Shown: positions 22,010-58,203, counted from the first letter of the stretch. The stretch: 64,000 nucleotides of DNA from Acidobacteria bacterium UBA2990 (GCA_002347025.1 DEAE01000002.1:91544-155543); one strand, 5' to 3'. The notes: generated by a model from the sequence alone, not told the origin. A program made the numbers and translations.

Positions 22010-23387
22010 ATGACAGGCCGGCAGGGAGGTCTCGTTGTCGTGTTTTTGGTTCAGGTGTTTGTGGTTGTTGCGACAGCTCAGCAGGGCGCGACCGGAGGAG
22101 AGTGACGCGACTATTTCAAGGGCCATGCCGCCCGGATGGGCCCGTGCGTATGATGCGAAGACTGGTCGACACAAATGGGATTTCCATACCGTGCCTCAGA
22201 GTGCGGACGAATACGGAGCTGATACCTGGTTGAACGACTCATGGCGAGAGGCTGGCAATACCAACATTTGGTCGATCATGAGCGGAGACCCGGAATTGGG
22301 GTATGTCTACCTGCCGATTGGGACCCCAACTAGCGACTATTATGGCGGCCATCGGCCTGGTGATAATTTATTTGCTGAGAGTCTTGTTGCGGTAGATGTT
22401 GAGACGGGTCAGCGGCAGTGGCACTTTCAAATGGTGCACCATGGGTTGTGGGATTATGACAATCCAGCAGCGCCCAATTTGATTGATGTGATGGTTGAAG
22501 GTCGGATGGTTAAGGCTGTTGCCCAGGTGACCAAACAAGGCTACCTCTATGCCTTTGACCGGGTGACCGGAGAACCTATCTGGCCGATCTTGGAACGGAC
22601 GGTGTCTACCGATACCGACCTGGTTAGGGAAACCCCATCTCCGACACAGCCCTTTCCGACTAAGCCGCCACCCTTTGAGTACCAGGGGACCTCTATCGAG
22701 GACCTTGTAGATTTCACCCCTGAGATCAGGCAACTAGCGATAGAGGCAGTGGAGGGTTTCCGGCTCGGGCCGTTGTATACCCCCAACAGTATGGCTGGGA
22801 CGGTCTTTCGACCCAGTATCGGTGGTGGTGCGAACTGGTCTGGGGCTGCGGTCGACCCCGAGTCTGGTCTCTTGTATGTCACCTCCAGAAATGCACATTC
22901 TGTGATGGGCTATCGAGAACCAGGTCCCGAGGAAGAATCAACGCTTCGCTATATTGTGGAATTTGGACGTCAGGGACCCCAAATGCCTCAGGGATTACCT
23001 CTATGGAAGCCGCCTTATTCACGTGTCACGGCTATCGATATGACGCGGGGTGAGCACACCTGGATGGCACCACTTGGGAATGGCGACCGATACCGCAATC
23101 ATCCAATGCTGCGTGGCCTCAACTTACCGCCACTCGGCGGAGACGGACGGGGGTCCCCACTGCTTACGAGCACCCTTCTAGTGGTGCCCGTGACTGCAGG
23201 TGGTAAGGATGGTGGTCCTCGCTTGGTAGCCTACGACAAGGGGACGGGCCAAGAGTTGGGTTCGGTTGACCTTCCTGGAGGAGCTTTGGGAGCACCAATT
23301 GGCTATATGTTGGAGGGCAAACAGTACATTGCGGTGACAGTTGGGGGCGAGGTGCCGGGCTTGGTCTCGTTCGGGCTTCCACACTGA
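22010..23387 (+). pseudogene. PQQ-dependent dehydrogenase remnant: signal peptide, premature TGA, deletion and frameshift, then the C-terminal ~430 aa of the propeller
   Basis: ATG at 22010 (after GGGGGAG) encodes MTGRQGGLVVVFLVQVFVVVATAQQGATGGE, then TGA at 22103-22105. The long ORF (22035-23387, another frame) begins inside the propeller at RAYDAKTGRHKWDFHTV...GDPELGYVYLPIGTPTSDYYGG. This aligns with roughly residue 210 onward of the intact PQQ enzyme at 32377-34080. Confidence 0.6.
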
Positions 23388-23585
23388 ATCTCGGCGAGTC
23401 TTTCCCGTTACCGTCTACAAGCCACAGTCTGGGAGCATTTGGTGACTAAAATAGGCGATTGCGTAACAGTCTCGCCGTGGACCGGCAGGGGCGAGTCGGT
23501 TTCCCGTAATGGGGTCTGCCATGTCGGGCAGGCTTAAGCTAGCGACATATTGCGTTAAGCCATTGACCCTCGTCGACCGGGTTGG

Positions 23586-24230
23586 TCACATCCACACCTG
23601 CTGAGCATCCGGGTCATCCTCTGAGGCCGGTGTCGCTTCGACTTGGAGCCTCATAGTGTCGTTTACCACGATGGTTTTGGGCGCGGCCGTGTAACCGCGC
23701 TTCCATACTTGCAGTTTGTGGTGTCCCGTGGGCACCGCTAGCCACGCCAATCCTTCCTCATCGGTGATGGCGCGATAGATGCCAAGGTTGACCTCGGTGT
23801 GCTTCAGGGGGGTTCCGGTCGTCTCTCCAATCACCAAAATCGTGACCTCGTGTTCGGGTGGTCTGGCGGCTCTGAAGCTGAAATTAGCAGAGGTGTTTGG
23901 GTGTTGAGGTCCAACGTCTGATGGCACCGTTTCTATAGTCCAGTGGTGCACGCCTTCACTACTTGGGGCGACCAGCTCTACCCGGCTGACGTAGAGTGCT
24001 GTCGCTTTAGGCCAGGGTTTCTCTTCCAGCGTGCCTCGGCCGATGCCGAGTCCCTCCTGGTTCCTGATCGTGACCGATCGTCCAGCTAACCGGCAGCTGG
24101 CCGTGCATTTGATTCCGACCATAACTGAGAAATATGTTTCCGTCACAGCTGGTGAAGGTACATCCCAGACGGCGATGCTCATTCGGTGTGGAACGTTGTC
24201 TGCTGGAGAACACTTATCCATATCCATCAC
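23586..24230 (-). CDS. Hypothetical protein with a C-terminal carboxypeptidase-regulatory-like beta-sandwich; no signal peptide
   Basis: 214 aa, with VTILVIGETTGTPLKHTEVNLG...GHHKLQVWKRGY resembling a CarboxypepD_reg fold. It lies 33 nt downstream of the Tat flavoprotein gene. Confidence 0.35.
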   Translation of the reverse strand: MMDMDKCSPADNVPHRMSIAVWDVPSPAVTETYFSVMVGIKCTASCRLAGRSVTIRNQEGLGIGRGTLEEKPWPKATALYVSRVELVAPSSEGVHHWTIETVPSDVGPQHPNTSANFSFRAARPPEHEVTILVIGETTGTPLKHTEVNLGIYRAITDEEGLAWLAVPTGHHKLQVWKRGYTAAPKTIVVNDTMRLQVEATPASEDDPDAQQVWM

Positions 24231-24263
24231 TTACGCCTTATCCCTTTGCTGCCCATCTGCAGG

Positions 24264-25946
24264 TCAAACGTTGCCTCCATTTACGGCTGCATCCCGTCCA
24301 GCAATGCGGCCGAAAACAAGGCATCGCCCAAGTCCATGTTGGGCGAATCCCCCCTGCGACTCACCCGCGCAGTAGAGCCCAGGGATGACCTGTCCCCGGG
24401 TGTCAATGACTTGCGCTCTGGTGTTTGTTCGAAGGCCAGTGAGTGAGTCGTGCAAGATAGGTGTGGACCACGCGGCAAAGAATGGTGGTGTCTGAATCTT
24501 GTATCGCGGATTGGGTTTCTGAAAATCTGGATCTTCCCCCTGGTCCACGAACGAGTTGTAACGGGACACGGTCTCTTGGAGCACCGCTCCGGACATCGGT
24601 TTCGCCTGGTAGGGATTAGTAATTCGGCCGGCCAGCTCCGCGATGGTATCCGCGGTGAAGAAATAACCGTCTGGGTCGATGTTAGGCGGTCGTGGGTCCC
24701 ACTCCTCTCTGGTCACGGCGTCACTATCGAAGATTGCCCAAATCGGACCTCCCCCATTTGGCCGGGCGGAATTGCCGTTATATGCCATTGCGGCTGCGAA
24801 GAAGTCGTAACGGGCATCTAACTCGTTCCAGAATCTCCGACCGACTTGGTTCACAAGAATGACCTCCTGCCAATTGGTTACGGTCAGTCCGGATGCGCGC
24901 GCGCTCTCGAAGACTCGTCTACCTAGGGCGGAACCGCTCAGGTACTCCTCTCCCCAAATCAAACTGTTGTATCCATATCGACATCCGATATGACGGGTCT
25001 TTGAGATGGCGATGCCGGATTCAGCTGTTTGGTTGGCCGTCGCCCACAAGCCTGCGCCAATGTCGAGGGCAGCGAGTTCCCCATCGCCACTTTGTCTAGA
25101 CCACGGCTCACCCGCTACTTGGTACTCTTCAGTCAGACGGGGATCGAACGTTCGACGGAGGGTCACGTTGCTTGAGCTGCCGCCAGTCGCTATGAGGACA
25201 CCCTTTCGGGCTCTAATGTTTACTGTACGGCCTTCATGTAGTGCTGTGACACCTAACACTCGCCCTGAGTGTGGTCCTTCTCGGACGATGCTAGTCATCT
25301 TGTGACGAAGACGGATGTCGACTCCTTTTGCCCGTGCGCTGGTCTCTAGGGCGCGAACGAGACCAGACCCGACTCGCGTCGGATAATCCGTCACGCGTTC
25401 GCTGGCGACGGGCCACTGCACCGTCCGCTGTTGCCGGCGGACAGTCGAGGCTCCTGTCGGACCCGTGAGGTGGTCCTGGAACTGCACACCATTTTCTAGA
25501 AGAAACTCAAAGGTTGGAGCATTCTCGTCGGCAAAGGTTCTGACGAGCTCGCGGTCGCTGTAGCGGCTTTGGCCATGGTCGTGGCGAACCCAATCAATGA
25601 AGACCTGTTCTGCCGAATCTGTCACGCCGTGTTGCTCCTGATTGCTCGTTCCGCCGCCCAGATGGACCTGGCCACCCGAGCACATCCCATGGCCTCCGAT
25701 ATCCACGTTTTCTTCCACCATGATTACTGATGCTCCATGGTCGAGCGCCGAGACGGCGGCGGCTAGGCCGGCGGTCCCGGCTCCAATGGTCACAAAGTCG
25801 GTGGAGAGGTCCCAGTAGTTCTGAGCTTCGGCCGTGTTGGGAGTCAGGGCGGTCAGGGTGGTTGCACCGACACCGGCTGTCGCGCCGGTTTTTAGAAAAT
25901 CTCTTCGGCTGGGGACTGAGTTGGCCTTTGTTTTAGGTTTCTCCAT
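24264..25946 (-). CDS. Tat-exported FAD-dependent oxidoreductase (fumarate reductase / 3-ketosteroid dehydrogenase flavoprotein-like)
   Basis: Twin-arginine signal SRRDFLKTGATAGVGATTLTA, FAD fold DFVTIGAGTAGLAAAVSA and C-terminal GLYCAGE. I trimmed the start to the ATG at 25946 (MEKPKTKANSV). The track extends it to 26120. Confidence 0.7.
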   Translation of the reverse strand: MEKPKTKANSVPSRRDFLKTGATAGVGATTLTALTPNTAEAQNYWDLSTDFVTIGAGTAGLAAAVSALDHGASVIMVEENVDIGGHGMCSGGQVHLGGGTSNQEQHGVTDSAEQVFIDWVRHDHGQSRYSDRELVRTFADENAPTFEFLLENGVQFQDHLTGPTGASTVRRQQRTVQWPVASERVTDYPTRVGSGLVRALETSARAKGVDIRLRHKMTSIVREGPHSGRVLGVTALHEGRTVNIRARKGVLIATGGSSSNVTLRRTFDPRLTEEYQVAGEPWSRQSGDGELAALDIGAGLWATANQTAESGIAISKTRHIGCRYGYNSLIWGEEYLSGSALGRRVFESARASGLTVTNWQEVILVNQVGRRFWNELDARYDFFAAAMAYNGNSARPNGGGPIWAIFDSDAVTREEWDPRPPNIDPDGYFFTADTIAELAGRITNPYQAKPMSGAVLQETVSRYNSFVDQGEDPDFQKPNPRYKIQTPPFFAAWSTPILHDSLTGLRTNTRAQVIDTRGQVIPGLYCAGESQGGFAQHGLGRCLVFGRIAGRDAAVNGGNV

Positions 25947-26421
25947 CCTTCTGTTTAGCCTCCGTGTGACATGCATGCGAGCTAGTGGCTCGACATGGAT
26001 CGTCTCGAGAACAAGGTTGTGTCGATTTAATCCTGCAAAAAAGTGTCCGGCTTGGCTGGTCCCAGTGATGCTCCAATCATTGGCCTCGGTTGGTTCACGG
26101 AGAATCTTTCGGGAAACCAAGGCGCCGAACTTACTGCGCGAAATACTGTCAACGGGAAATCGCCCTATTGTCTCACTTCAGGACCGTTCCTTAGTATCTC
26201 AAAATTTTCTGGTTAGGAAGGTCGCTGTATTGAGCTTGACCTCAGGAGAATTTTGGTTGGCTGGCTCGGTCCTGCGGTTGTCTCTGAATACTGAGGTTCA
26301 CTTGACGGATTCTGGAAGCGCCCCTACACTTTACCTAGCGATTCAGATGTTGGTGTTCTGGGGCTTGGATCTGGCCGGATGGAGACCCGCTGGTGTCCGG
26401 TCGGTGGGCCAGGAGGGCAGG

Positions 26422-28896
26422 ATGTTGAGACTGGCTGGGCGCATACTGTGGCCGTCGTTTTTCGCCTTAACAGCGATAGTGGTTTTAGGTACGGTCGGCA
26501 TGGAGGCTGCCGGTCCGCAGGGTTCAGCGGGTGCGGGTTCGTCTGTAGCTGCCTCCACTGGCTCACCAGACCCTCGGGGTCTTCTCAACGAGTATTGTGT
26601 AGCTTGCCATAACGAGAGGTTGCGGACTGCCGGCCTGAATCTTGACACGGTTGACGTTGCGGATATTGGGGCGACGGCCGAGACATGGGAAAAGGTGGTG
26701 GGCAAGCTGCGCAGTGGCGCGATGCCCCCGCCCGGACGGCGTCGCCCGGACTCCGCGACGTTCGATGTGTTTGTGGCGTGGCTGGAAGGCGAGCTTGACT
26801 TGGCTGCGGCAGCCGATCCGAATCCTGGCCGTCCCGTGGACCATCGTCTAAACAGGTTTGAATATAGCAATGCCGTTCGCGATCTGTTGGCGCTCGAAAT
26901 CGATGCTGAGTCTCTATTGCCAGCTGACGAATCCGACCACGGCTTTGACAACATTGCTGAGGTCCTCTCGATGTCCCCGACGCTTTTGGGCCGGTATATG
27001 GTGGCGGCTCGTAAAGTTAGTCGTCTGGCCATCGGAGACCCGACCCTAGGGCCTGCAATAGAAACCTTTGACTTGTCGCGCGGCCTTCGACAAAACGAGC
27101 GAATGAGCGAAGGCTTGCCCTATGGCACACGGGGTGGCATGGGGATTCAGCATTACTTCCCCCTCGATGGCGACTATGTCGTAAAAATTCGGTTGGGGCG
27201 GAACTTTACCAATTCACAAATACGGGCAATCCGTACGCGAGAAGAGGTCGACGTATTGCTCGATGGTGTGCGGGTCGAGCGATTTCAGATAGGCGGAGAG
27301 TGTGTGGATTCGGATGATCCAAATTGTGCCGGATCGGGAATTTACCGAACCTCGCGATACCAGTTGACGGCAGATGAAGCCTTGGAGGTTCGGTTTCCTG
27401 TTACAGCGGGCATGCACACGCTTGGTGTCGCTTTTGCTAGGAAGAGTGTGTTGACCGAAGGTCCAGCCCCGCCTTTGCTTCCACCACGGCATACGAGTTC
27501 GACCTATGAAGCCCCTCGGATGGATGTCGATTATGTGCGTTTGGAGGGGCCGTTTGATCCGACTGGTCCTGGCGATACCCCAAGCCGACGCAGGGTCTTT
27601 GTGTGTCGGCCTACGAGCCTTAGCGATGAAGAGCCCTGTGCCAGGGAGATATTGGAAACGCTTGCCCATCGTGCTTACCGTCGTCCAGCGACTCAGTCAG
27701 ACGTCGACACTTTGTTTGAGTTTTACCAGATCGGTCGAACCGAAGGCGATTTTGAACGAGGCATTCAGGAGGCATTGGCACGTTTGCTGGTATCTCCCCA
27801 GTTTCTATTCCGCATCGAACGAGATCCGGTCGAGGTTTCTCCTGACGGGATTTATAGCATCAGTGACCTCGAGCTAGCATCCAGGCTCTCATTCTTCCTG
27901 TGGAGTAGCATCCCTGATGCCCAACTGCTTGAGGTGGCAGCGCGTGGAGCACTCAGGACGCCCGGTGAGCTAGAGTCACAGGTAGAGCGCATGCTTGCCG
28001 ATCCACGGGCATCAGCCTTGGCTAGAAATTTTGGTGGTCAGTGGCTGTTTATTCGGAACTTGCAAGCGGTTGACCCAGATGCCAGTTCGTATCCCGAGTT
28101 TGACGACAACTTGCGTGTTGCCTTTCAGCGAGAAACAGAGTTGTTTCTGGAATACCAACTTCGTGAGAATAGGCCACTAGAGGAGTTGTTGACAGCAGAC
28201 TACACGTTTGCAAATGAGCGTTTAGGGCGCTTTTACGGACTCAACAATGTTTATGGTGCCCATTTTCGACGTGTCCCGTTGGACGGGACGCAGCGGGCTG
28301 GGTTGCTCGGGCATGGGAGCATCCTGACGGTCACGTCTTATGCAACCCGGACGTCGCCAGTGGTTCGAGGCAAGTTCTTGCTGGATAACATCCTGGGGGC
28401 CCCGCCCCCGCCCCCGCCCCCGAATGTTCCACCTCTCGAGGAAGAGGCTGAGACGGGGCAGGCGCTGGCTTCGATTCGTGAGCGGATGGAAGCCCATCGA
28501 CAGAATGCGGCATGCGCAGCCTGTCATACACGTATGGACCCGCTGGGTTTTGCGTTGGAGAATTTCGACGGCATAGGTCGGTGGCGTACGATGGACGGTG
28601 ACACTGAAATCGATGCGTCTGGAGTGTTGCCAGACGGAACGAAGTTCACTGGTCCAGAAGACTTTCGCGATGCTCTGTTAAAGCACCGCGAGGAGTTCGT
28701 CCGTACCGTCACGGAAAAACTCTTAACCTATGCCCTTGGCCGAGCGGTTCAGCATTACGACATGCCGGCCGTGAGGAGCATTTTGCGGGAAACAGGTTCT
28801 AGCCCCAGTTGGTCATCATTAGTTCTGGGTATTGCAAAGAGCCAACCGTTTCAAATGAGAAAGACACACGAGGTTGTGGGAGTGGCTGAGGAATAG
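26422..28896 (+). CDS. DUF1592/DUF1585/1587/1588/1595-type (planctomycete PSD/PSCyt) protein with two CxxCH motifs, copy 1
   Basis: The ATG at 26422 is preceded by AGGAGGG. Signal/TM sequence is ILWPSFFALTAIVVLG. Motifs are YCVACHNERLRTAGLNLD...LRSGAMPP, LASRLSFFLWSS, GAPPPPPPPNVPPLEE and HRQNAACAACHTRMDPLGFALENFDGIGRWR. The track ORF (from 25834) is over-extended. Confidence 0.75.
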   Translation: MLRLAGRILWPSFFALTAIVVLGTVGMEAAGPQGSAGAGSSVAASTGSPDPRGLLNEYCVACHNERLRTAGLNLDTVDVADIGATAETWEKVVGKLRSGAMPPPGRRRPDSATFDVFVAWLEGELDLAAAADPNPGRPVDHRLNRFEYSNAVRDLLALEIDAESLLPADESDHGFDNIAEVLSMSPTLLGRYMVAARKVSRLAIGDPTLGPAIETFDLSRGLRQNERMSEGLPYGTRGGMGIQHYFPLDGDYVVKIRLGRNFTNSQIRAIRTREEVDVLLDGVRVERFQIGGECVDSDDPNCAGSGIYRTSRYQLTADEALEVRFPVTAGMHTLGVAFARKSVLTEGPAPPLLPPRHTSSTYEAPRMDVDYVRLEGPFDPTGPGDTPSRRRVFVCRPTSLSDEEPCAREILETLAHRAYRRPATQSDVDTLFEFYQIGRTEGDFERGIQEALARLLVSPQFLFRIERDPVEVSPDGIYSISDLELASRLSFFLWSSIPDAQLLEVAARGALRTPGELESQVERMLADPRASALARNFGGQWLFIRNLQAVDPDASSYPEFDDNLRVAFQRETELFLEYQLRENRPLEELLTADYTFANERLGRFYGLNNVYGAHFRRVPLDGTQRAGLLGHGSILTVTSYATRTSPVVRGKFLLDNILGAPPPPPPPNVPPLEEEAETGQALASIRERMEAHRQNAACAACHTRMDPLGFALENFDGIGRWRTMDGDTEIDASGVLPDGTKFTGPEDFRDALLKHREEFVRTVTEKLLTYALGRAVQHYDMPAVRSILRETGSSPSWSSLVLGIAKSQPFQMRKTHEVVGVAEE

Positions 28897-28942
28897 CGAG
28901 GATCGCGTTGCCATTTGGCGTCCCTGGTGGAGGAATATTTAC

Positions 28943-30301
28943 ATGGTGATTACGAAGAAATGCTTGTCTCGTCGCACGGTACTTCGAGGGCTTGGTGCGA
29001 GTGTTGCTCTGCCGCTGCTCGATGGCATGGTTCCGGCCTTTGCTGCTATCAGGAATAGCGCAGCCAGGCCAGTCAAGCGGCTCGGAGCGTTGTATGTCCC
29101 CAACGGAATGAGCATGCCTTACTGGCGACCTGCTTTGGAGGGGCCTCTGGAACTTTCTCCGGTTTTGACACCGTTGGCGCCCGTTCAGGACCAGCTGTTG
29201 GTGCTGAGTGGCATGGCGAATCAGGAGGCTAAGCAGTGGCTTGATGAGGGTGACGGCGACCATTCACGGTGTCAGGCTGCCTTTTTGACCGGAGCCCATG
29301 CGAAGAAAGCTTCAGGAGCTAACACGACACTTGAGGTGGGCGTGTCGATGGACCAACTTGCAGCTCGCGAACTACGAGAGGACACGCAGTTGGCGTCTCT
29401 CGAATTGTCGTTGGAGGCGAATGAACTCGTCGGGCAGTGTGAAGATGGGTATGGCTGTGCCTACAGCGCAACGCTGGCCTGGCAAGACCCCAACACCCCT
29501 CTGCCAATGCAGACAAATCCTCGGGCAGTGTTTGAACATTTGTTTGGTGCGGTGGGTAGCACAGAGAGCGATGCTAGGCTCAAGGCCCTTCGGCGAGACC
29601 GGAGCCTGCTCGATTCGGTGAGTGAGGAGCTTACTGCTCTCCAACGGCAACTCGGCCGCAGCGATAGGTCGAAACTGGGTGGATATTTGGACTCGGTGCG
29701 AGACATAGAAAGGCGCATCCAGATTGCTGAGACCCAGAGCGATCAAGAGCTGCCGGAGGTTATTCAGCCGGCTGGTATCCCTGCCAGTTTTGAGGAATAT
29801 GCTGATTTGATGTTTGATTTGTTGCTGGTCGCCTATCAGGCAGATCTGACCCGTGTGTCTACCTTCCTGTTTGGTCGTGAGAAGAGTGTGCGGACCTATC
29901 CAGAAATTGGCGTGGCTGATCCACATCACCCGACCTCACACCATCGGATGCGGCCAGAGCAGTTAGCGAAGCTGTCTAAGATCAACACGTTTCATATGCA
30001 AATATTTGGACGGTTCCTCGAGAAACTGCGGTCTACACCAGACGGAGATGGCTCGCTGCTGGACCATTCTGTGATGATTTATGGGGCTGGAATGGGAAAC
30101 AGCAACGCCCATGATCCCCTTGACCTGCCAATCGTGGTGGCTGGTGGCGGCGGAGGAACACTCAAGGGTGGGCGACACCTTCGTCTTCCGGATGGGACAC
30201 CGTTGGCAAACCTGCATTTAACCGTTCTTGAAAAGATGGGAATTTCTGCTGACAGCCTTGGCGATGCCACCGGCGAACTTCCGGTTCTGTCCGAGGTGTA
30301 G
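28943..30301 (+). CDS. DUF1552-type protein with a Tat-like signal, copy 1
   Basis: ATG at 28943 after GGTGGAGGA. MVITKKCLSRRTVLRGLGASVALPLLDGM, then the conserved blocks LPSLELS, RSLLDSV and GVADPHHPTSHH. Confidence 0.7.
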   Translation: MVITKKCLSRRTVLRGLGASVALPLLDGMVPAFAAIRNSAARPVKRLGALYVPNGMSMPYWRPALEGPLELSPVLTPLAPVQDQLLVLSGMANQEAKQWLDEGDGDHSRCQAAFLTGAHAKKASGANTTLEVGVSMDQLAARELREDTQLASLELSLEANELVGQCEDGYGCAYSATLAWQDPNTPLPMQTNPRAVFEHLFGAVGSTESDARLKALRRDRSLLDSVSEELTALQRQLGRSDRSKLGGYLDSVRDIERRIQIAETQSDQELPEVIQPAGIPASFEEYADLMFDLLLVAYQADLTRVSTFLFGREKSVRTYPEIGVADPHHPTSHHRMRPEQLAKLSKINTFHMQIFGRFLEKLRSTPDGDGSLLDHSVMIYGAGMGNSNAHDPLDLPIVVAGGGGGTLKGGRHLRLPDGTPLANLHLTVLEKMGISADSLGDATGELPVLSEV

Positions 30302-30362
30302 GTGAATGGCTGGTGGGCATCATGTCGGTGTCGCACCTCTGGGTCGTGTGCACGGGTAAGGA

Positions 30363-31844
30363 ATGGGTATGCGAATGCGCAACGAACTATTAACGATAAC
30401 CTTCGGGAGTTTGGCGTTAGCGGTTGCGAGCGTTACAGCGGCGAATGAGGGTGACCTGCGTGTGGTTGATGCTGCAAAGCAGCAAGACGAAGCTTCGGTT
30501 CGGGATTTGCTCACTCGGGGGACTCCGGCTGACGTGGCTCAGCCAGATGGGTTTACGGCTCTTCACTGGGCGGCGCAGTGGAACCACGCTGAAATCGCTG
30601 ACCTCGTCATTGGCGCAGGTGCGGATGTGAATGCGGCGGACCAGTACCAAGTGACGCCGCTAGCCTTAGCCTGCCTTAACGCGAGTTCTTCCATGGTGGA
30701 ACGACTATTGGAGGCTGGAGCGGACCCGAATTCAACCCAAGAGTCTGGCGAAACGGCACTTATGACTTGTGCGCGGAGCGGTCGGTGGAGCGCCGTGTCT
30801 CTGCTTGTTTCCCGTGGGGCAGATCTGGATGCGCGGGAAAGGGACCATGGTCAGACTGCCCTGATGTGGGCTGCCTGGGAAGGGCATACCGATGTGGTGA
30901 GGGGGTTGTTGCGCCACGGTGCCGAGGTGGACACACAGACTACCACCGGCTACACGGCGTTACTGCTTGCAGCACGAGAAGGTTACACAGAGACTACCAA
31001 GGCTCTACTCGATGCCGGGGCGGATGTGAATGCCACGGCCGAGGATGGTACGTCTGCCTTGCTGGTTGCCGTTATTCGAAGACATACAGGTTACGCAAAG
31101 TTTCTACTCGACCACGGCGCTGATCCGAATCTCGGTCCTGGATTCACCCCTTTGCACTGGGCGGCCGGCGAATGGGATACCGAACTGAATGATTTTTCGA
31201 ATGGTGTGGCGGAGGGCAATCAGTGGAGTGCCTTTGGTGGACTTTTGCCAGCGGACCGGTTGCGGATGGTAAAGCTTCTTCTCGACCACGGTGCAGACCC
31301 GAATATTCGGACTGATAGAACTCCAGGATTCGGGATTCGAGTGAAGGGGCATCTAGGCAACATTTCAGGGGGGACGCCTTTCCTGATAGCGGCTCGAGCA
31401 AACGATGTCGACGTCATGCGGGAGTTGTTGTTACGTGGTGCCGATCCACTGACTCCTACCAAGAACGGGACCACACCGTTGATGATGGCTGCCGGTGTTG
31501 GCCACGAGCCCGGCATCACTCGATCTATGGAGGGTGAGGCACTCGAGGCGGTCTACCTTTGTGTCGAGCTTGGAGCCGATGTGACTGCGGTTAACGAGGC
31601 CGGCGACACTGCCTTGCACGGGGCAGCATGGCGCGAGAGGGCAGATTCGATTGTTGAGTTCCTTGTGGCTCGAGGGGCCGACATTGATGCCAAGAATCGG
31701 AAAGAGTGGACGCCACTCGTTATTGCGGAAGGGGTTCATACTGGCGGTAACTTCATCAAATCCGATACAACCGCTGCGCTACTTCGGACACTCGGTGCAA
31801 CGCCCAGTCCGCCAGATATTTCAAGGGAGCCGGACGCCAGATAA
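30363..31844 (+). CDS. Secreted ankyrin-repeat protein (~12 repeats), copy 1
   Basis: Signal peptide LTITFGSLALAVASVTAA. Repeated TALHWAA..GH...V..LL..GADVNA units run throughout. Confidence 0.8.
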   Translation: MGMRMRNELLTITFGSLALAVASVTAANEGDLRVVDAAKQQDEASVRDLLTRGTPADVAQPDGFTALHWAAQWNHAEIADLVIGAGADVNAADQYQVTPLALACLNASSSMVERLLEAGADPNSTQESGETALMTCARSGRWSAVSLLVSRGADLDARERDHGQTALMWAAWEGHTDVVRGLLRHGAEVDTQTTTGYTALLLAAREGYTETTKALLDAGADVNATAEDGTSALLVAVIRRHTGYAKFLLDHGADPNLGPGFTPLHWAAGEWDTELNDFSNGVAEGNQWSAFGGLLPADRLRMVKLLLDHGADPNIRTDRTPGFGIRVKGHLGNISGGTPFLIAARANDVDVMRELLLRGADPLTPTKNGTTPLMMAAGVGHEPGITRSMEGEALEAVYLCVELGADVTAVNEAGDTALHGAAWRERADSIVEFLVARGADIDAKNRKEWTPLVIAEGVHTGGNFIKSDTTAALLRTLGATPSPPDISREPDAR

Positions 31845-32376
31845 GCGACGGCAGCCTGGAGGAGTGTCAGGGCCGTGCCATCGTAGAACTGGTTTTACAA
31901 TTCGGTAGTGCCGTGAGCGTCCACATGCCAGGGGCCAGTGTCTGAGCTGGCGTTTCTGGCGTTAGTTGATGGCCTTCTTAGCCAGCGTTCAGTGGAAGTA
32001 CGGTCACTTAAGCCGCCTCTTGGTATGCCTTGGTTGTCTGCCCGTCGTGATTGAGCTCGCTGACGGTTAGGGTTTACCCTCAGCCTCCGTACAGCTAGGC
32101 AACCACCCCCAGACTGGCATGTTGCGATTGTTTCAATTGGAATGGTCCTGACATGGGTATCATTTGTCTCTTCCTGACAAGAATGATGTGTTTACGGAGC
32201 TGGACATCGACAACATGTTGAACACGCTGACCGAGGCAGGGTGTCTTCAGGCATTGTTCCGGTCGTAGGTAGGTTGCCTGCTAGGGGGCTGTGGGATTGC
32301 TGCTGAAATGTTTGCTCATGGATGGATAGCCTAACAACACGAGGCAACTGTTTTGCGCAGCGATGGAGGAGTTCTG

Positions 32377-34080
32377 ATGGATGACACAGGGCGGTGCTGT
32401 GTGCTCGTGTTCGTGTTGGCTGGATTCCTTGGTGGTGTTTCGGTTGGGACTCAGGGAGAGACTTTTGAGCCAGTTACTGATGCGATGCTTCAAGACCCTG
32501 ACCCTGCCGATTGGTTGAACTGGCGACGGACGCTTGACGGGTGGGGCTATAGTCCGCTGGAACAGATCAATCGGGACAATGTCCATCAATTGAGTCTGGC
32601 ATGGTCCTGGACGATGACACCAGGTCTGAGTCAAGCTACACCGATTGTCTACGATGGTGTGATGTACCTTCCGAACCCGCTCAATATTGTGCAGGCGATT
32701 GATGCGCGGACTGGCGATCTGCTCTGGGAATACCGCAAGCAGTTCGACCGGTCGCCGGATGATTCATTTCGGGCACGGACTCGGTCGATTGCTATCTACG
32801 ACGACAAGGTTTATCTCAACACCAACGATGCTCATATCGTAGCTCTCGATGCCCGTAGTGGTGCAGTGGTCTGGGACCATACGGTGGCTGATAACCGACT
32901 GGGTTATCGGTATACCAGCGGGCCAATCGTGGTTTCAGGAAAAATTGTGGCAGGTATGACAGGGTGTGAACGCTATAAGGATGGCACCTGTTTTATTTCG
33001 GCTCACGATCCGCAGACCGGTGCTGAGTTGTGGCGGACATCGACCGTCGCCCAACCAGGGGACCCAGGAGGGGATAGTTGGGGGGATCTTCCGGCAACCT
33101 TTAGAGCTGGTGGCGACGCCTGGATACCTGGTAGTTATGACCCAGGCACAAATCTGATGTATTGGTCGACCTCTCAGGCAAAGCCTTGGGCACGGTTGTC
33201 GCGCGACACTGACGGCGATGCACTCTATACGAACAGTGCGCTCGCGATCTCCCCAGAGACCGGTAAGCTGGAATGGTATTACCAGTTCGTTCCCGGCGAG
33301 ACCCACGACCTAGACGAGGTATTTGAAAGTGTGCTGATCGACCACAATGGCCGTCAGTCGCTCTTCAAGATGGGCAAGCTTGGCATTCTGTGGGAACTTG
33401 ACCGGCAGACCGGGCAGTTTGTGGCCGCCCATGATTTGGGGTATCAGACGCTCATCGATGTGGACTCGGAGACAGGGAGGGCCACGTACAGGCCTGGGGT
33501 CATTCCGAAGCCTGGTGAGGCACTAGAGTTCTGCCCGGATTTCCAGGGGATTCGGAATTGGCGAGCGTCTGCCTATCATCCTGGAACGGGAGCGTTGTAC
33601 ATCCCCATTCATCCGAGATGTGTTCGCGGTGTCTTTAGTGAGGTCGCCAGAGAACCCCATCCTGTGGGGGACCTCAACTACTACGCAAACCCTCGTTGGA
33701 CTGGCTGGCAGGCGGACGGGAGGTTGCCTCACCCGAAGAGTCCAGACCATGATGGTCATCTTGTAGCGATTGATATTGAAACTGGTGCTGTTCGCTGGCG
33801 TCATTCGACTCGAACGCGGTCGTTGGTGGCTGCCTTGACGACAGGTGGAGGATTGGTGGTCACAGCGGATGGTGACCGCTACTTGTATATCAATGATGTC
33901 GAGACAGGGGCGGTGTTGTTTCAGACACGCCTGCCGTCTCCTCCTCAAGGGTTTCCTATCACTTACGCCGTGGATGGACGGCAGTACCTAGCCGTTCCCG
34001 TCGGTGGTGGTCGTCAGGTCGGTGCACCCAACGCGATGTTTGTGTTCACGTTGCCCGAGGAAGGTAGTGAGGAACCGTGA
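32377..34080 (+). CDS. PQQ-dependent dehydrogenase, methanol/ethanol family (8-bladed propeller), secreted
   Basis: ATG at 32377 after GGAGGAG. DPADWLNWRRTLDGWGYSPLEQINRDNVHQLSLAWSW, with repeated xxAxDxxTGxxxW blade motifs. Confidence 0.75.
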   Translation: MDDTGRCCVLVFVLAGFLGGVSVGTQGETFEPVTDAMLQDPDPADWLNWRRTLDGWGYSPLEQINRDNVHQLSLAWSWTMTPGLSQATPIVYDGVMYLPNPLNIVQAIDARTGDLLWEYRKQFDRSPDDSFRARTRSIAIYDDKVYLNTNDAHIVALDARSGAVVWDHTVADNRLGYRYTSGPIVVSGKIVAGMTGCERYKDGTCFISAHDPQTGAELWRTSTVAQPGDPGGDSWGDLPATFRAGGDAWIPGSYDPGTNLMYWSTSQAKPWARLSRDTDGDALYTNSALAISPETGKLEWYYQFVPGETHDLDEVFESVLIDHNGRQSLFKMGKLGILWELDRQTGQFVAAHDLGYQTLIDVDSETGRATYRPGVIPKPGEALEFCPDFQGIRNWRASAYHPGTGALYIPIHPRCVRGVFSEVAREPHPVGDLNYYANPRWTGWQADGRLPHPKSPDHDGHLVAIDIETGAVRWRHSTRTRSLVAALTTGGGLVVTADGDRYLYINDVETGAVLFQTRLPSPPQGFPITYAVDGRQYLAVPVGGGRQVGAPNAMFVFTLPEEGSEEP

Positions 34081-34144
34081 GTTTGAAGCTTTGGCTCGAT
34101 CACTCGGCTTGGCTCGAAGCGAAAGCAGGTTTAGGCACATTCCC

Positions 34145-34178
34145 GGTGTAAACGCACGGTCCCCTGCGCGTTTACACC
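34145..34178. terminator. Perfect 11-bp stem hairpin between convergent genes (candidate bidirectional terminator, no U-tract)
   Basis: GGTGTAAACGC-(12 nt)-GCGTTTACACC, located between the PQQ-ADH stop (34080) and the OsmC stop (34199). Confidence 0.35.
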
Positions 34179-34198
34179 GTTGAGTCTGGCAAACTGGC

Positions 34199-34624
34199 TC
34201 ACGACTCGAGCGTAGCGGTCATCGAAATCTCAGCATTCATAAGTTTCGAGATAGGGCAGCCGGCCTTGGCATCGTTGGCTGCGCTCTCGAACGCGGCTTG
34301 GTCTGCGCCAGGAACTTTCGCGGACACCTCCAAATGGATTCGGGTTACGGCGAATCCGTCCTCCACTTGCTCTAGCGAGACTGTGGCGCTGGTGCTGACG
34401 TGGGCTGGCGTGAGGCCGGCCTGCGCTAGTCCATGCGAGAGTGCCATTGAAAAACACCCGGCATGTGCCGCGGCGATCAGTTCCTCTGGGTTCGTGCCAG
34501 CGCTTCCCTCAAATCGCGTGGCGAACGTATAGGCAGCGTCTGTGAGAACGCCGCTTGTGCTTGAAATGGCTCCACTGCCACCTTTGAGGTCTCCCCTCCA
34601 GATGGCTGATGCCTTGCTGTCCAT
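34199..34624 (-). CDS. osmC: OsmC-family peroxiredoxin
   Basis: 141 aa with WRGDLKGGSGAIS, TNPEELIAAAHAGCFSMAL and AKAGCPISKLM, the two conserved Cys blocks of OsmC. Confidence 0.85.
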   Translation of the reverse strand: MDSKASAIWRGDLKGGSGAISSTSGVLTDAAYTFATRFEGSAGTNPEELIAAAHAGCFSMALSHGLAQAGLTPAHVSTSATVSLEQVEDGFAVTRIHLEVSAKVPGADQAAFESAANDAKAGCPISKLMNAEISMTATLES

Positions 34625-34802
34625 ACTTCCTCCTGACTTCTCGGGCCGGTCGGCATGGAGCCGAGGACCCTTTGTGAGTGTGGTAGTGCACTTCTTACTA
34701 GAAGTGTAGAGACCAAACCTTAATGCTAGGTGCTTAGGCTTTCTTACGCAAGCCGATGGTTATACTGCCGGTCTAGAAACTGTTCGGCTTCGGCCGTGTG
34801 CC

Positions 34803-36401
34803 TCATTTGTCTTGAAGAATGAATTTTGCGCCTTGTTCCGCAATCATCACAGTCGGAGCATTTGTGTTGCCCGAGGTGATTTGCGGCATGATCGAGGCAT
34901 CAATTACACGGAGACTATCGATGCCGTGTACGGCTAGGCGATCGTTCACGACGGCTTGGTTGTCATGTCCCATCTTGCAGGTCCCAACTGGATGAAAGAT
35001 GGTTGTCCCAAGATCTCCAGCCGCTTGGGATAGCGCCGCATCGCCTTCGACGTCAGGTCCAGGGAGCCACTCAATCGGTTCAAAACGGGCGAGGGACCGA
35101 GCGGCCATGATGCGGCGTGTGAAGCGTAGGCCAGCCACGGCAATTTCTCGGTCTTCCTTGGTCGAAAGATAGTTAAGGGTGATTGTAGGGGCATGTAGCG
35201 GATCTGGATTTTGTATCCGTACATGACCTCGACTTGTGGGCTGCAAATTGCAGACCGAAGGTGTGATGGCGTTAAACGTGTGTAATGGTGAGCCAAATTT
35301 GTCGAGGGATAAGGGTTGAACATGCCACTCCATGTTCGCTGAACGCCGAGACGGGTCACTCTTGGCGAAAGCTCCGAGTTGGGATGGTGGCATAGTAAGG
35401 GGTCCGGTCTTGAAGAGGAGATACTCTAACCCCATCGCGGCCTTACCGAACCATGAGTTTACCCGCTGGTTCAAAGTGACTGTGTGGCTGACTTTAAAGA
35501 TGGTCCGTATCTGAAGATGGTCTTGCAGGTTCTCGCCAACACCGGCAAGGTCGTGCACGACCTCCACGCCATGCTTCTGCAATACGGCACCGGGACCAAT
35601 CCCAGATAGCTGCAGAATCTGAGGAGACCCTATGGATCCAGCCGCGAGGATCACCTCTCGGCGAGCTTCTAGGATAGCGTCAGAGTCGACCAATTTTACT
35701 CCTCTTGCACGTTTGCGGCCGTCATGGATGTCAATTGCCAGACGGTCGACGTGCGCTCCAACCCGTATGGTTAGGTTCGGTCGATGTTCGACTGGTCGGA
35801 GAAAGGCTTTGGTGCCACTCCAGCGGCGGCCATTGCGTTGATTCATCTGAAAGTAGGCACTTCCCGAGTTGTCTCCACGGTTGAATTCGGTGATTTTGGG
35901 AATCCCGCATTCTTGGGCTGCCTCACGCCAAGCATCAAGGATTTCCCAGCTGACGCGTTTCTCTTCGACCCGCAGTTCGCCGCCGACACCATGGAAGGCA
36001 TCAGCGCCGTGCTGATAGTCTTCTGATTGCATGAAGATGGGGAGCACGTTCTCCCAGGACCAGCCACGATTTCCGAGTGATGCCCAATAGTCGTAGTCTT
36101 GTTGCTGTCCACGCATGTAAATCATGGCGTTGATTGATGAACATCCACCGAGAACCCGACCGCGGGCGTAGCCGATGCTGCGACCGTTGAGTCCTTGGTC
36201 AGGTTCAGTCGTATAACACCAGTCGGTACGAGGGTTGCCGATCGTGTAGAGATACCCAACCGGGATGTCGATCCAAAAATAGTTATCTTGTCCTCCGGCT
36301 TCCAGTAAGAGAACGCTATTGTTTGGATCAGCGGAGAGGCGGTTGGCTAGGACGCAGCCTGCAGTGCCACCACCTACGATGATGTAATCGTGGCTTATCA
36401 C
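34803..36401 (-). CDS. GMC-family FAD oxidoreductase (choline dehydrogenase-like)
   Basis: DYIIVGGGTAGCVLANRLSADPNNSVLLLEAGG, GGCSSINAMIYMRG and C-terminal HPVGTCKMG...VIDASIMP. Confidence 0.85.
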   Translation of the reverse strand: MISHDYIIVGGGTAGCVLANRLSADPNNSVLLLEAGGQDNYFWIDIPVGYLYTIGNPRTDWCYTTEPDQGLNGRSIGYARGRVLGGCSSINAMIYMRGQQQDYDYWASLGNRGWSWENVLPIFMQSEDYQHGADAFHGVGGELRVEEKRVSWEILDAWREAAQECGIPKITEFNRGDNSGSAYFQMNQRNGRRWSGTKAFLRPVEHRPNLTIRVGAHVDRLAIDIHDGRKRARGVKLVDSDAILEARREVILAAGSIGSPQILQLSGIGPGAVLQKHGVEVVHDLAGVGENLQDHLQIRTIFKVSHTVTLNQRVNSWFGKAAMGLEYLLFKTGPLTMPPSQLGAFAKSDPSRRSANMEWHVQPLSLDKFGSPLHTFNAITPSVCNLQPTSRGHVRIQNPDPLHAPTITLNYLSTKEDREIAVAGLRFTRRIMAARSLARFEPIEWLPGPDVEGDAALSQAAGDLGTTIFHPVGTCKMGHDNQAVVNDRLAVHGIDSLRVIDASIMPQITSGNTNAPTVMIAEQGAKFILQDK

Positions 36402-36590: not shown

Positions 36591-39005
36591 ATGCCTCGGA
36601 GGTTATCTGTGGTCAGAGCTTTTTTTGTCCCGATCGCGTTGTGGGTGGTTCTGGGGGGGGTAACAGACCCTCTTTGGGCTGCAGGGCAATTGGGAAAGTC
36701 GGAAGCCCTCGATGAACCTGGAGCCCTTATCGGACGATACTGTCTGGGTTGCCACAATGACCGGTTAACTACAGGCGGGCTATCCCTCGAGGGGGTTGAT
36801 GCAGGTGATCCAAGCGCCCACCCCGATGTGTGGGAAAGGGTGGTTCGAAAACTGCAGACAGGTGCGATGCCCCCCCAGCCTCGTCCTCGGCCAGACCGAG
36901 ACACCTACGAACAGTTGGTGTCCTATCTTGAAACAGCTCTAGATCAAGTAGCTGCTAGCAGGCCTAATCCTGGAAGAACTGAGACATTTCGGCGTCTCAA
37001 TCGAACGGAATACCAAAACGTAATCCGCGATCTCTTGGCTCTTGATATCGACGCGACTGAACTATTGCCACGCGACGATGCGGCGTTCGGCTTTGACAAC
37101 GTAAACACGGGCGTCCTGTCACCCACGTTGATGGAACGCTACCTGGCGACTGCTCGGACGGTGAGTGAATTGGCTGTGGCGAGCGAGGTTCCGTCGGTTG
37201 GGAGTCGGGTGGTGATCTTGCCTCCGGACAGGACACAGCGGGAACACGTCGATGGCTTGCCGTTCGGAACGCGTGGTGGCACGTTGGTCGAACATACCTT
37301 CCCATTCGATGGCGAATACGAGATTCAGGTGCGGTTGCAGCGGAATCGGAACGAGAATGTGGAAGGTTTGACCGAACCGCACGATATGGAGATCTCGCTC
37401 GATGGCGACAGGCTCGAATTGTTCACGATGGAACCGGATCGTGAGAGCTTTGTGATTCAGGCGAATGCGGCCTATTACACCGATGAAGGCATCGACAATC
37501 ACCTAAATGCCAGGCTATCGGTAACGGCTGGGCCGCATACAGTCGGGGCGACCTTTATTAAAAAGAACTCGGCCTTGTTGGAATCCACAAGGCAGCCCTA
37601 TCAGGCGCAATTTAACAATGATCGTCACCCTCGGCAGCAGCCTGCGGTTCGGTCGGTATCGATTGTTGGTCCGTTCAGTCCGACTGGTGTCGGTGAGACT
37701 CCTAGTCGGCGGCGAATCTTTTCTTGCCGACCGGCAACAGAGTCTGTCGACGACGCTGAGGAATGTGCCACGGCGATCGTGGGGACGCTCGCCCGTCGTG
37801 CCTATCGGCGTCCAGTGTCGGTGGATGACCTTGAGCAACTCCTGTCCTTTTATCGAGAAGGGCATGCGGTGGGTGGGTTTGAAGTTGGTATCGAAACGGC
37901 ACTACGTGCGCTGCTTGCGAGTCCTGAATTTCTGTTTCGGATTGAGCGCGACCCCGATGATGTAGAGGCTGGCACGGCCTACTTGGTGAGTGACCTTGAA
38001 CTGGCAACGCGGCTGTCATTCTTTTTGTGGAGCAGCCTGCCTGATGACGAACTCCTTGATGTGGCGTCAGCGAAGCAGTTGCGAGACCCTCAGGTATTAA
38101 AGGCCCAAGTGAAGCGAATGTTAGCTGACCCGCGCGCCGAAACCCTCACCAGCAATTTTGCTTCCCAGTGGCTCCATTTGAGAAATTTGGATGCGGTTCA
38201 GCCAGACTCTCGATTATTCCCGGACTTTGACGACAATCTGCGTCTAGGATTCCGGAGAGAGACGCAGTTGCTCTTTCGGAGCATCGTTGATGAGGACCGG
38301 AGTGTGACTGACCTCCTGACGGCCGATTACACTTTCTTGAACGAACGGGTAGCAAAGCACTATGGGCTGTCAGGGGTCTACGGCGATCACTTTCGGCGCA
38401 TTTCTCTTCCTGAAGGGAGCCCGCGGGCCGGTTTGCTCGGTCATGGCAGCATCTTGACCGTGACGTCCTATGCCACGCGGACCTCTCCGGTATTGCGTGG
38501 AAAATGGATTCTTGAAAATCTCCTTGGTACTCCGCCTCCACCACCGCCCCCGAACGTCCCTCCGCTGGAGGAGAGCCGTTCGACTACGCAGGTGGTGTCA
38601 ATGCGTGACAGGATGGTTGCTCATCGTCAAAACCCCGCTTGTGCGGTCTGTCACCGCGTTATGGACCCCGCTGGATTGTCGATGGAAAATTTCGATGCGA
38701 TTGGCCGGTGGCGAGACGCTGAGGGTGGTGTGGCGATCGATGCATCTGGCAGTCTTCCCGGCGGCAGTGATTTTGACGGCGTGGTGGGCCTGCAGCAAGC
38801 TTTGCTCGACCGTCCAGATGTGTTTGTTCGAACAGTGACAGAAAAGCTTCTGATTTATGCTCTGGGTCGAGGCCTTGAGCATACGGATGCTTCGGCGGTT
38901 CGTGAGATTCTTCGTGTGTCAGCTAGTGACGACTATCGTCTTTCAGCTCTCGTGGTTGGTGTGGTTGAAAGTACGCCCTTCCAGATGAGGAGATCGCAGT
39001 CATGA
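36591..39005 (+). CDS. DUF1592-type protein with two CxxCH motifs, copy 2
   Basis: ATG at 36591 (MPRRLSVVRAFFVPIALWVVLGG). Motifs are YCLGCHNDRLTTGGLSLE...LQTGAMPP, LATRLSFFLWSS, GTPPPPPPPNVPPLEE and HRQNPACAVCHRVMDPAGLSMENFDAIGRWR. The track ORF starts at 36390. Confidence 0.75.
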   Translation: MPRRLSVVRAFFVPIALWVVLGGVTDPLWAAGQLGKSEALDEPGALIGRYCLGCHNDRLTTGGLSLEGVDAGDPSAHPDVWERVVRKLQTGAMPPQPRPRPDRDTYEQLVSYLETALDQVAASRPNPGRTETFRRLNRTEYQNVIRDLLALDIDATELLPRDDAAFGFDNVNTGVLSPTLMERYLATARTVSELAVASEVPSVGSRVVILPPDRTQREHVDGLPFGTRGGTLVEHTFPFDGEYEIQVRLQRNRNENVEGLTEPHDMEISLDGDRLELFTMEPDRESFVIQANAAYYTDEGIDNHLNARLSVTAGPHTVGATFIKKNSALLESTRQPYQAQFNNDRHPRQQPAVRSVSIVGPFSPTGVGETPSRRRIFSCRPATESVDDAEECATAIVGTLARRAYRRPVSVDDLEQLLSFYREGHAVGGFEVGIETALRALLASPEFLFRIERDPDDVEAGTAYLVSDLELATRLSFFLWSSLPDDELLDVASAKQLRDPQVLKAQVKRMLADPRAETLTSNFASQWLHLRNLDAVQPDSRLFPDFDDNLRLGFRRETQLLFRSIVDEDRSVTDLLTADYTFLNERVAKHYGLSGVYGDHFRRISLPEGSPRAGLLGHGSILTVTSYATRTSPVLRGKWILENLLGTPPPPPPPNVPPLEESRSTTQVVSMRDRMVAHRQNPACAVCHRVMDPAGLSMENFDAIGRWRDAEGGVAIDASGSLPGGSDFDGVVGLQQALLDRPDVFVRTVTEKLLIYALGRGLEHTDASAVREILRVSASDDYRLSALVVGVVESTPFQMRRSQS

Positions 39006-40348: not shown

Positions 40349-40372
40349 CCCGGCATTGCTTGGAGGTAGATC

Positions 40373-49758: not shown

Positions 49759-50124
49759 TGGGCGAGGGCCATTGCGCGTGAAGTTTTCGACCGTTATAGA
49801 CGCTGGATCTGCTAGGGGTGTTGTCTGACAGACTCAGCAGGGAAGACATGATAGTGGTGGAACGTAGGAGGTTTGTTTTTCTCAGTTACGGGATCGCTGG
49901 AGCCTGGTGGCCTTCCCATTAGTTGCTGCGCTGGGTGCCTTCTAATTGGCTGGTTACAGCACTGTCTGTCAAAAAGGCGGTTGTTGGGTCACTGACATTC
50001 ACTGGGGGCTGATGCTGACTTCAATGGTTGGTTTCATGATAGCGCTTTGCCACGTGTTTTTGAGGGCTATCAGAGGGGTTCAAATGGTTTCAGCCTCTGA
50101 GGGAGTTTCCATGGTGTGGAACAG

Positions 50125-58176: not shown

Positions 58177-58203
58177 GCAGTTTATTAAACCAGAGTTGTG
58201 TTT

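Follow-up and report, generated by a model that had tools for sequence, protein, structure and literature searches.

Why is the gene of a secreted ankyrin-repeat protein found behind a cytochrome gene and a DUF1552 gene, and this three times within 64 kb of one bacterial genome? The question is posed by a 64,000-nucleotide stretch of DNA from Acidobacteria bacterium UBA2990 (GCA_002347025.1, DEAE01000002.1:91544-155543), which was analysed at its full length and is referred to here as the window. It holds three paralogous gene trios, numbered 1 to 3, in which gene A encodes the cytochrome, gene B the DUF1552 protein and gene C the ankyrin protein. The PSCyt, PSD and DUF domains in question were first defined in Rhodopirellula baltica. 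Literature searches on DUF1552, DUF1592, the other PSD and PSCyt names, DUF1501, and ankyrin together with Acidobacteria retrieved neither a functional study nor an ankyrin partner. The PSCyt3 ('group III')/DUF1552 pair itself is known and has been called intriguing, its function being reported as not known (He et al. 2017, PMC5615132). This agrees with the preliminary description of the locus, which had spoken of a known pair with no assigned function. The trio is an Acidobacteria-specific version of this pair with a previously undescribed ankyrin partner.

The genes A, B and C are linked and diverge together, and their products share a predicted periplasmic address. In a survey of Acidobacteriota, an alignment of B was scanned against one genome per GTDB species and the best 80 loci were kept with 10-kb flanks. 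Their open reading frames (ORFs) were compared with A, B and C by BLAST, which yielded 94 DUF1552 genes. A full-length C-like gene was adjacent to 79 of these in three gene orders, namely, A-B-C on the same strand (55 genes), C-A-B on the same strand (7) and C divergent from A-B (17). Ten further genes were undecidable due to a cut contig and five were scored as being without ankyrin. Three of the latter (L038, L069 and L074) were rejected as artefacts of split A genes; true absence of C among the decidable cases was found for L029 and L058 only. The reverse test gave a similar picture, as two of three sampled C homologues lay in A-B-C trios and one beside a decayed B remnant. In the last case (L172:2202-4004), a lone C-type ankyrin gene follows an 87-residue remnant of a DUF1552 C-terminus that is 70% identical to B1, and the locus appears to be a decayed trio that retained its ankyrin gene.

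Over 75 complete trios, the pairwise distances of A, B and C correlated with r = 0.92-0.95 (Mantel 0 of 999). The subfamily assignments of the three proteins also agreed, with an adjusted Rand index of 0.84-0.97, and each subfamily had its own gene order. The length of the C homologues is conserved at 489-496 aa. Several trio units were found per genome (e.g. OZ242279.1 and OZ220736.1), and some genomes contained at least five.

Outside this clade, the picture is a different one. A metagenome scan seeded with a distant DUF1552 protein (35% identical to B1) gave 80 loci, mostly marine, and the B genes in this set (559 kb) were identified by profile searches. About 70 of them were full-length and out-of-clade, nearly all with an A gene upstream, and none of these ~70 had an ankyrin gene in its locus. 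The only ankyrin genes of the 559-kb set were those of L094 and L095, both beside in-clade B genes; L166 also has an ankyrin gene with DUF1552. The boundary of the ankyrin clade was placed by sampling representatives down the similarity ranking of the B profile matches and lies between E ~1e-131 and 1e-127 or weaker. At ~1e-131, ankyrin was present in a C-A-B arrangement, while the representatives sampled at 1e-127 or weaker had no ankyrin gene but other third genes, e.g. PhyH or a second DUF1552. Because the ankyrin gene is absent from the out-of-clade loci and a boundary was found down the ranking, it was added in one clade only to a two-gene system of far greater extent; in public data clustered at 50% identity, the DUF1552 profile matched 25,230 clusters. 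The earlier proposal that an ankyrin gene is conserved beside DUF1552 consequently stands beyond this genome (79/94) and fails as a general feature of the family, being confined to one acidobacterial clade and absent from ~70 distant loci. Near or beyond the clade edge, the gene after DUF1552 encodes a PhyH-type dioxygenase or a pirin (L163:2856-3626 and L166:6491-7201), both being metal-dependent oxidoreductase-type families, and L170 contains two DUF1552 genes in tandem.

Trio 1 consists of three plus-strand ORFs with gaps of 46 and 61 nt. A1 (26422-28896, 824 aa) is a predicted two-haem c-type cytochrome of the PSCyt3/DUF1592 type by Pfam, predicted to be exported by Sec and secreted or anchored, with homologues of ~810-835 aa. 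B1 (28943-30301, 452 aa) belongs to DUF1552/HXXSHH (Pfam 7.4e-92), with predicted twin-arginine translocation (Tat) and a probable alkaline-phosphatase-like fold according to AlphaFold2 (AF2), Foldseek and hhalign. C1 (30363-31844, 493 aa) is an ankyrin protein with a Sec signal, as judged by the Pfam Ank families and the repeat cores. Trio 2 is likewise on the plus strand (36591-41854). It comprises A2 (36591-39005, 804 aa) with 50% identity to A1 and the haem motifs CLGCH at residue 51 and CAVCH at 684, B2 (39002-40348, 448 aa, DUF1552 with Pfam 1.2e-93) and C2 (40373-41854, 493 aa), which aligns with C1 along its whole length at 41% identity. Trio 3 lies on the minus strand (57775-52470) and comprises the A1 paralogue A3 (55373-57775, 800 aa; CVTCH at 58 and CASCH at 680), B3 (54036-55376, 446 aa, DUF1552 with Pfam 8.7e-92) and C3 (52470-53999, 509 aa), an ankyrin paralogue with 45% identity to C2. 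All members of trios 2 and 3 were assigned by Pfam, and their architecture is identical to that of copy 1. The coordinates and spacing given in the preliminary description for trio 1, the two recurrences and the motifs CVACH (residue 59), CAACH (residue 698) and SRRTVLRG, which were checked in the translation, were all reproduced. The hmmscan check that it had suggested assigned gene 1 to the DUF1592-type family and gene 2 to DUF1552.

The identity between the paralogues in the window amounts to 50-55% for A, 47-59% for B and 37-45% for C. For each of the three genes, copies 2 and 3 are more similar to each other than either is to copy 1 and, therefore, the trio was duplicated as a unit. In these two copies, the start of B overlaps the stop of A by 4 nt (ATGA), and such overlaps were found in many related loci, which indicates translational coupling of A and B. 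When the surroundings of trio 1 were scanned for promoters and terminators, the matches did not exceed chance; thus, the operon structure is deduced from spacing and overlaps only. A clue in the form of charge complementarity was sought in the nine mature proteins and none was found, as net charge and isoelectric point were acidic throughout.

Protein A1 matched the Pfam families PSCyt1, PSD3 (DUF1587), PSD5 (DUF1595), PSD4 (DUF1592; 1.3e-45), PSCyt3 (DUF1588) and PSD2 (DUF1585). PSD3, PSD5, PSD4, PSCyt3 and PSD2 occurred in canonical order and above the gathering score in all three paralogues, with E-values of 1e-18 to 1e-48. The PSCyt1 and Cytochrome_CBB3 matches of the A paralogues were near threshold, the latter being weak. 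Haem motif 1, CVACH, was located by translation at residues 59-63 (26596-26610, plus strand), and its likely axial ligand is Met101 in GAMPPP. Each of the residues C59, C62, H63, M101, P102 and P103 is shared by at least 90% of the relatives in and out of the clade. Haem motif 2, CAACH, lies within PSCyt3 at residues 698-702 (28513-28527, plus strand, by translation), and H692, C698, C701, H702, D706 and P707 are conserved across the family. Exactly two CxxCH motifs were present in 34 of 34 full-length out-of-clade A proteins. Motif 1 belongs to a class-I-like domain of the ordinary type, with Met as the likely ligand, and motif 2 to the novel, mostly helical PSCyt3 domain. The sequence points to the binding of two c-type haems, and these are probably functional because the two CxxCH motifs, together with the Met ligand, are kept throughout the family.

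Between PSD3 and PSD5, the strands of the AF2 model outline a variable β-sandwich at approximately residues 205-395 (27034-27606, plus strand) without a Pfam match. It gave weak Foldseek matches to the carbohydrate-binding modules CBM35 and CBM6, and Pfam CBM60 occupies the same slot in A homologues. The β-sandwich is the part with the lowest identity between the paralogues in the window (38-50%), PSCyt3 the one with the highest (65-74%). It was also the only part of the A model matched by Foldseek, as the helical PSD and PSCyt3 parts had no fold match in the PDB. The A1 sequence itself gave no meaningful match in the PDB.

The B paralogues reached 308-314 bits against HXXSHH/DUF1552 (PF07586) at a cut-off of 30, and NCBIfam contained no model for A or B. 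The twin arginines of the predicted Tat signal, R10 and R11 (28970-28975, plus strand), are invariant in 40 homologues and kept in out-of-clade DUF1552 proteins. The motif reads SRRTVLRG or PRRTFL(R/K)G in the B copies, and the Pfam TAT_signal match was weak (E = 0.03). HPTSHH at residues 329-334 (29927-29944, plus strand) is part of the presumed metal site; the motif occurs in all three copies and aligns with WDHH of DUF1501. The residues conserved both within the clade and beyond it are R10, R11, H107, D137, Q138, D224, D241, R253, E256, T303, R304, H329, S332, H333, D374 and H390, which include a His/Asp/Ser set common to the DUF1552 family (H107, D137, H329, S332, H333, D374 and H390).

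An AF2 model of B was built from 40 homologues with a predicted local distance difference test (pLDDT) score of 66 and compared with known structures by Foldseek. All six matches at E <=0.001 belonged to the alkaline-phosphatase (AP) superfamily (sulfatases, LtaS), followed by YejM, phosphoglycerate mutase and alkaline phosphatase. The best structural matches of B come from this superfamily of sulfatases, LtaS/EptA-type transferases, YejM and the cofactor-independent phosphoglycerate mutase, and its conserved His/Asp pairs stand late in the sequence like the AP metal ligands. It differs from this superfamily in its low TM-scores, the lack of a HMMER-level match, the lack of an evident nucleophile and the pairing with a cytochrome. 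Neither a conserved Ser, Thr or formylglycine nucleophile nor a CxPxR motif was evident in B. Searches of the PDB with the B1 sequence and the B profile returned nothing but spurious coiled-coil matches to its helical insert. A permissive Pfam scan gave no link to the Sulfatase, DUF1501 or Metalloenzyme families, and when the sulfatases of the fetched loci were aligned, hhalign gave no significant match between that alignment and the B profile. Based on uniform Foldseek matches of a mediocre model and a weak profile match to DUF1501, B looks like an AP-superfamily-like metalloenzyme. The earlier idea of gene 2 as a metal or catalytic subunit gains support from the probable AP-like fold together with the family-wide His/Asp set.

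A related arrangement is found in the pairs of PSCyt2-PSD1 (DUF1549/DUF1553) with DUF1501, which we take to be a member of the alkaline-phosphatase clan. There, too, a multidomain cytochrome-like protein is encoded beside a Tat-signal AP-like protein. A DUF1501 alignment was built from the fetched loci, with the family identity confirmed by Pfam. The B profile was colinear with it and the His/Asp motifs matched, hhalign pairing HHxxSHH with WDHH and H390 with RDHH. However, Pfam keeps the two apart as separate families, and their profiles match only weakly, with a probability of 35%. In L083:2033-6004 as well as in L090, L136 and L155, the DUF1592-type/DUF1552 pair is directly preceded by a DUF1501 gene, and the two AP-like 'planctomycete' families thus share a locus.

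C1 consists of ankyrin repeats according to Pfam (Ank 2.8e-72), with 11 recognisable repeat cores at a spacing of ~33 aa, and C can be described as a solenoid of ~12 ankyrin repeats. Its N-terminus is hydrophobic and ends in VTA, a predicted Sec signal. The description of gene 3 as ankyrin repeats behind a Sec signal was therefore borne out by Pfam, the repeat cores and the N-terminus.

With moderate confidence, each trio is regarded as an operon for three periplasmic proteins working together, with B as the catalytic protein, A in electron transfer/substrate binding and C as a dedicated partner. B would be exported in a folded state with its His/Asp metal centre and act as the catalytic subunit. 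A would dock on B, its β-sandwich binding a possibly glycan-like substrate, and its two haems would link B or the substrate with the electron-transfer pool of the periplasm and carry electrons between them. Neighbouring dehydrogenases dependent on pyrroloquinoline quinone (PQQ), of the glucose-methanol-choline (GMC) type or with flavin adenine dinucleotide (FAD) may feed or drain that pool. Each C paralogue would bind specifically to the A/B pair of its own trio, either as a stable, clamp-like third subunit or as an assembly factor. The several diverged trios per genome may then correspond to several substrates. In a more detailed version, which can be put forward only tentatively, the AP-fold, Tat-exported metal protein would perform electron-coupled chemistry on organic, possibly glycan-derived substrates, the two-haem cytochrome would wire it to the pool and the 12-repeat ankyrin protein would be an obligatory subunit.

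Several points weigh against this interpretation. Genes in tight linkage can also diverge in parallel through shared inheritance alone. For A, AF2 gave a poor model with a pLDDT of 60. For B, the comparison with AP-superfamily structures gave probabilities of 0.99-1.0, but TM-scores of only 0.3-0.45 at a pLDDT of 66, and the colinear hhalign match to DUF1501 (E = 4e-4) had a low probability of only 35%. Moreover, the invariant His107 seems to sit at the position of the AP nucleophile, as judged by the order of secondary structure only. To our knowledge, no member of the AP superfamily is a redox enzyme, and the coupling of an AP fold with a cytochrome is without precedent. PQQ dehydrogenases are neighbours in approximately a quarter of the loci only and may mirror their abundance in these genomes. 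Finally, most DUF1552 pairs work without an ankyrin gene, and the core chemistry can therefore not depend on C.

The role of C as a stable subunit and that of a transient chaperone fit the same data. C might be a transient maturation or cofactor-delivery factor (a holdase or a chaperone for haem or metal) acting on periplasmic A or B, which we regard as rather unlikely. Such a role would suit the absence of the ankyrin gene from most of the DUF1552 family, and the clade with C has its own Cys loop in B (insertion 160-166, C166 and C172) that might need help in folding. On the other hand, C with its ~12 repeats is much larger than AnkB, the ankyrin partner of the catalase KatB, which has a handful of repeats. 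A separate, diverged C for each A/B subfamily also speaks for a specific, extensive interface over a generic chaperone. Precedents for the chaperone role are provided by operonic ankyrin proteins needed for the full activity of haem enzymes, one of which binds haem. Howell et al. (2000), as cited in PMC12754779, reported KatB activity to depend on AnkB, and Flint et al., as cited in PMC11442138, described Cj1386 as the protein that supplies KatA with haem. According to these secondary accounts, in katB-ankB of Pseudomonas and Myxococcus and in Cj1386-katA of Campylobacter the gene of a haem enzyme has an ankyrin gene as its neighbour, as in the trio, and the ankyrin product is needed for full activity or for haem loading of the enzyme. 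AnkB is described there as periplasmic, as is predicted for C, while Cj1386 is described as cytoplasmic and C has a signal peptide. The homology of both to C is limited to the repeat motif; C, which is known from genes alone, has ~12 repeats and a conserved length, and the genes beside it encode a cytochrome and an AP-like protein where AnkB and Cj1386 accompany a catalase.

Alternatively, A and B might form a sulfatase- or phosphatase-like hydrolase or transferase, with structural or redox-sensing haems in A and with C binding the substrate or another partner. This is considered unlikely. The AP-superfamily-like fold modelled for B and the CBM-like module in A are in agreement with it, and so is the genomic surrounding of the out-of-clade pairs, where sulfatases were the commonest neighbours with 33 genes in the metagenome loci. 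Sulfatase neighbours of the pair have been reported in Verrucomicrobia as well (He et al. 2017, PMC5615132). However, the acidobacterial loci contain dehydrogenases and not sulfatases. B lacks a conserved Ser, Thr or Cys nucleophile, its family-wide residues being His, Asp and one Ser in HxxSHH, and the family-wide conservation of both CxxCH motifs and the Met ligand in A points to haems that function. That the ankyrin gene is functionally unrelated, i.e. an 'eukaryote-like' effector or a generic ankyrin neighbour by chance, is the usual reading of ankyrin proteins in environmental and symbiont genomes and could draw on an NCBIfam similarity of C to Legionella Ank effectors, yet these scores were below threshold and far under the cut-offs, and the reading is effectively excluded by the neighbourhood data, namely, the adjacency of 79/94 over three gene orders, the conserved length, the divergence in step with A and B, three paralogous copies in one window and a lone C beside a decayed B.

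The closest known relatives of the trio are the PSCyt3/DUF1552 pairs of Planctomycetota and Verrucomicrobiota. They have the same Pfam architecture of A, the same B family, adjacent and co-oriented genes, two CxxCH motifs, a Tat signal and HxxSHH. The acidobacterial trio adds, as a near-constant partner, a secreted ankyrin protein of ~490 aa, which is absent from the ~70 distant pairs, and its neighbours are PQQ, GMC and FAD oxidoreductases instead of sulfatases. Parts of A resemble Cbp2D from Cellvibrio japonicus, a secreted protein implicated in polysaccharide breakdown that combines c-type cytochrome domains and CBM2 with a DUF1587/PSD3 region (PMC8981238). The X183 domain of Cbp2D can reduce lytic polysaccharide monooxygenases (PMC8981238). 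The resemblance is restricted to these parts, as Cbp2D is without PSD4, PSCyt3 and PSD2 and no DUF1552 or ankyrin partner has been described for it.

DUF1552 with its cytochrome partner is one of the large uncharacterised protein systems in environmental bacteria. The ankyrin partner offers an experimental handle on this very large dark family, for example by pull-down, co-crystallisation or specificity tests with swapped paralogues, and a dedicated protein-binding partner argues for A and B acting as a complex. Periplasmic ankyrin partners of enzymes are rare, and C would be the first ankyrin protein integral to a bacterial periplasmic enzyme complex if the proposal is true. If the redox reading holds as well, the AP fold would gain its first redox use, and with it a wider range of known chemistry, and the finding would bear on the extracytoplasmic oxidation of organic matter by abundant soil and ocean bacteria. 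The findings also call for caution in metagenomics, where ankyrin genes are routinely scored as eukaryote-like host-interaction factors: the C family, which is abundant in soil and marine Acidobacteriota, is tied to a periplasmic enzyme system.

Trios 1 and 2 lie in a run of genes for periplasmic oxidoreductases (window positions 22035-36401). It includes two PQQ dehydrogenases (22035-23387 and 32353-34080), a FAD_binding_2 flavoprotein with a Tat signal (24264-26120, minus strand) divergent from A1 and a GMC oxidoreductase (34803-36401, minus strand) divergent from A2. PQQ dehydrogenases were found near the trios in 18 of the 80 related loci at variable distance, and their role as an obligate partner was rejected as unproven. 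The PQQ gene at 22035-23387 lacks 630 bp (210 codons, in frame) compared to the contig L081, which is 98% identical to the window and in which the gene encodes 671 aa, with the junction near 22101-22108, and its ORF covers positions 184-595 of the Pfam PQQ profile only. It could be a true deletion variant, a pseudogene or the result of a collapsed assembly repeat.

A secreted family of ~346 aa without a Pfam match, in which CHEGN is conserved near the C-terminus, was encoded in 16 of the 80 trio loci (e.g. L030:18382-19422 and L042:15272-16378), often in several tandem copies and beside PQQ dehydrogenases. Between trios 2 and 3, the window contains a gene for a BamB/PQQ_2-like β-propeller (47652-48944) and a cytochrome c assembly gene of the CcsA/ResC type (50116-50958); the latter bears on haem attachment generally and is not specific to the trios. 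Divergent from trio 3, an 815-aa protein is encoded at 58198-60645 with two radical S-adenosylmethionine regions and a CofH/MqnC C-terminal domain, which looks like a fused FO-synthase-type enzyme by its domain content only.

Concerning the origin of the sequences, the window belongs to a genome of the Vicinamibacterales (Acidobacteriota). The nearest relatives of B were found in metagenome-assembled genomes of Vicinamibacterales and other Acidobacteriota, and the window is syntenic with two Logan contigs at 98% identity. Trios in L012, L038, L052 (labelled Bifidobacteriaceae) and L062 (labelled Alphaproteobacteria) are 50-76% identical to acidobacterial ones, and the taxon labels of these four loci look like binning or naming errors.

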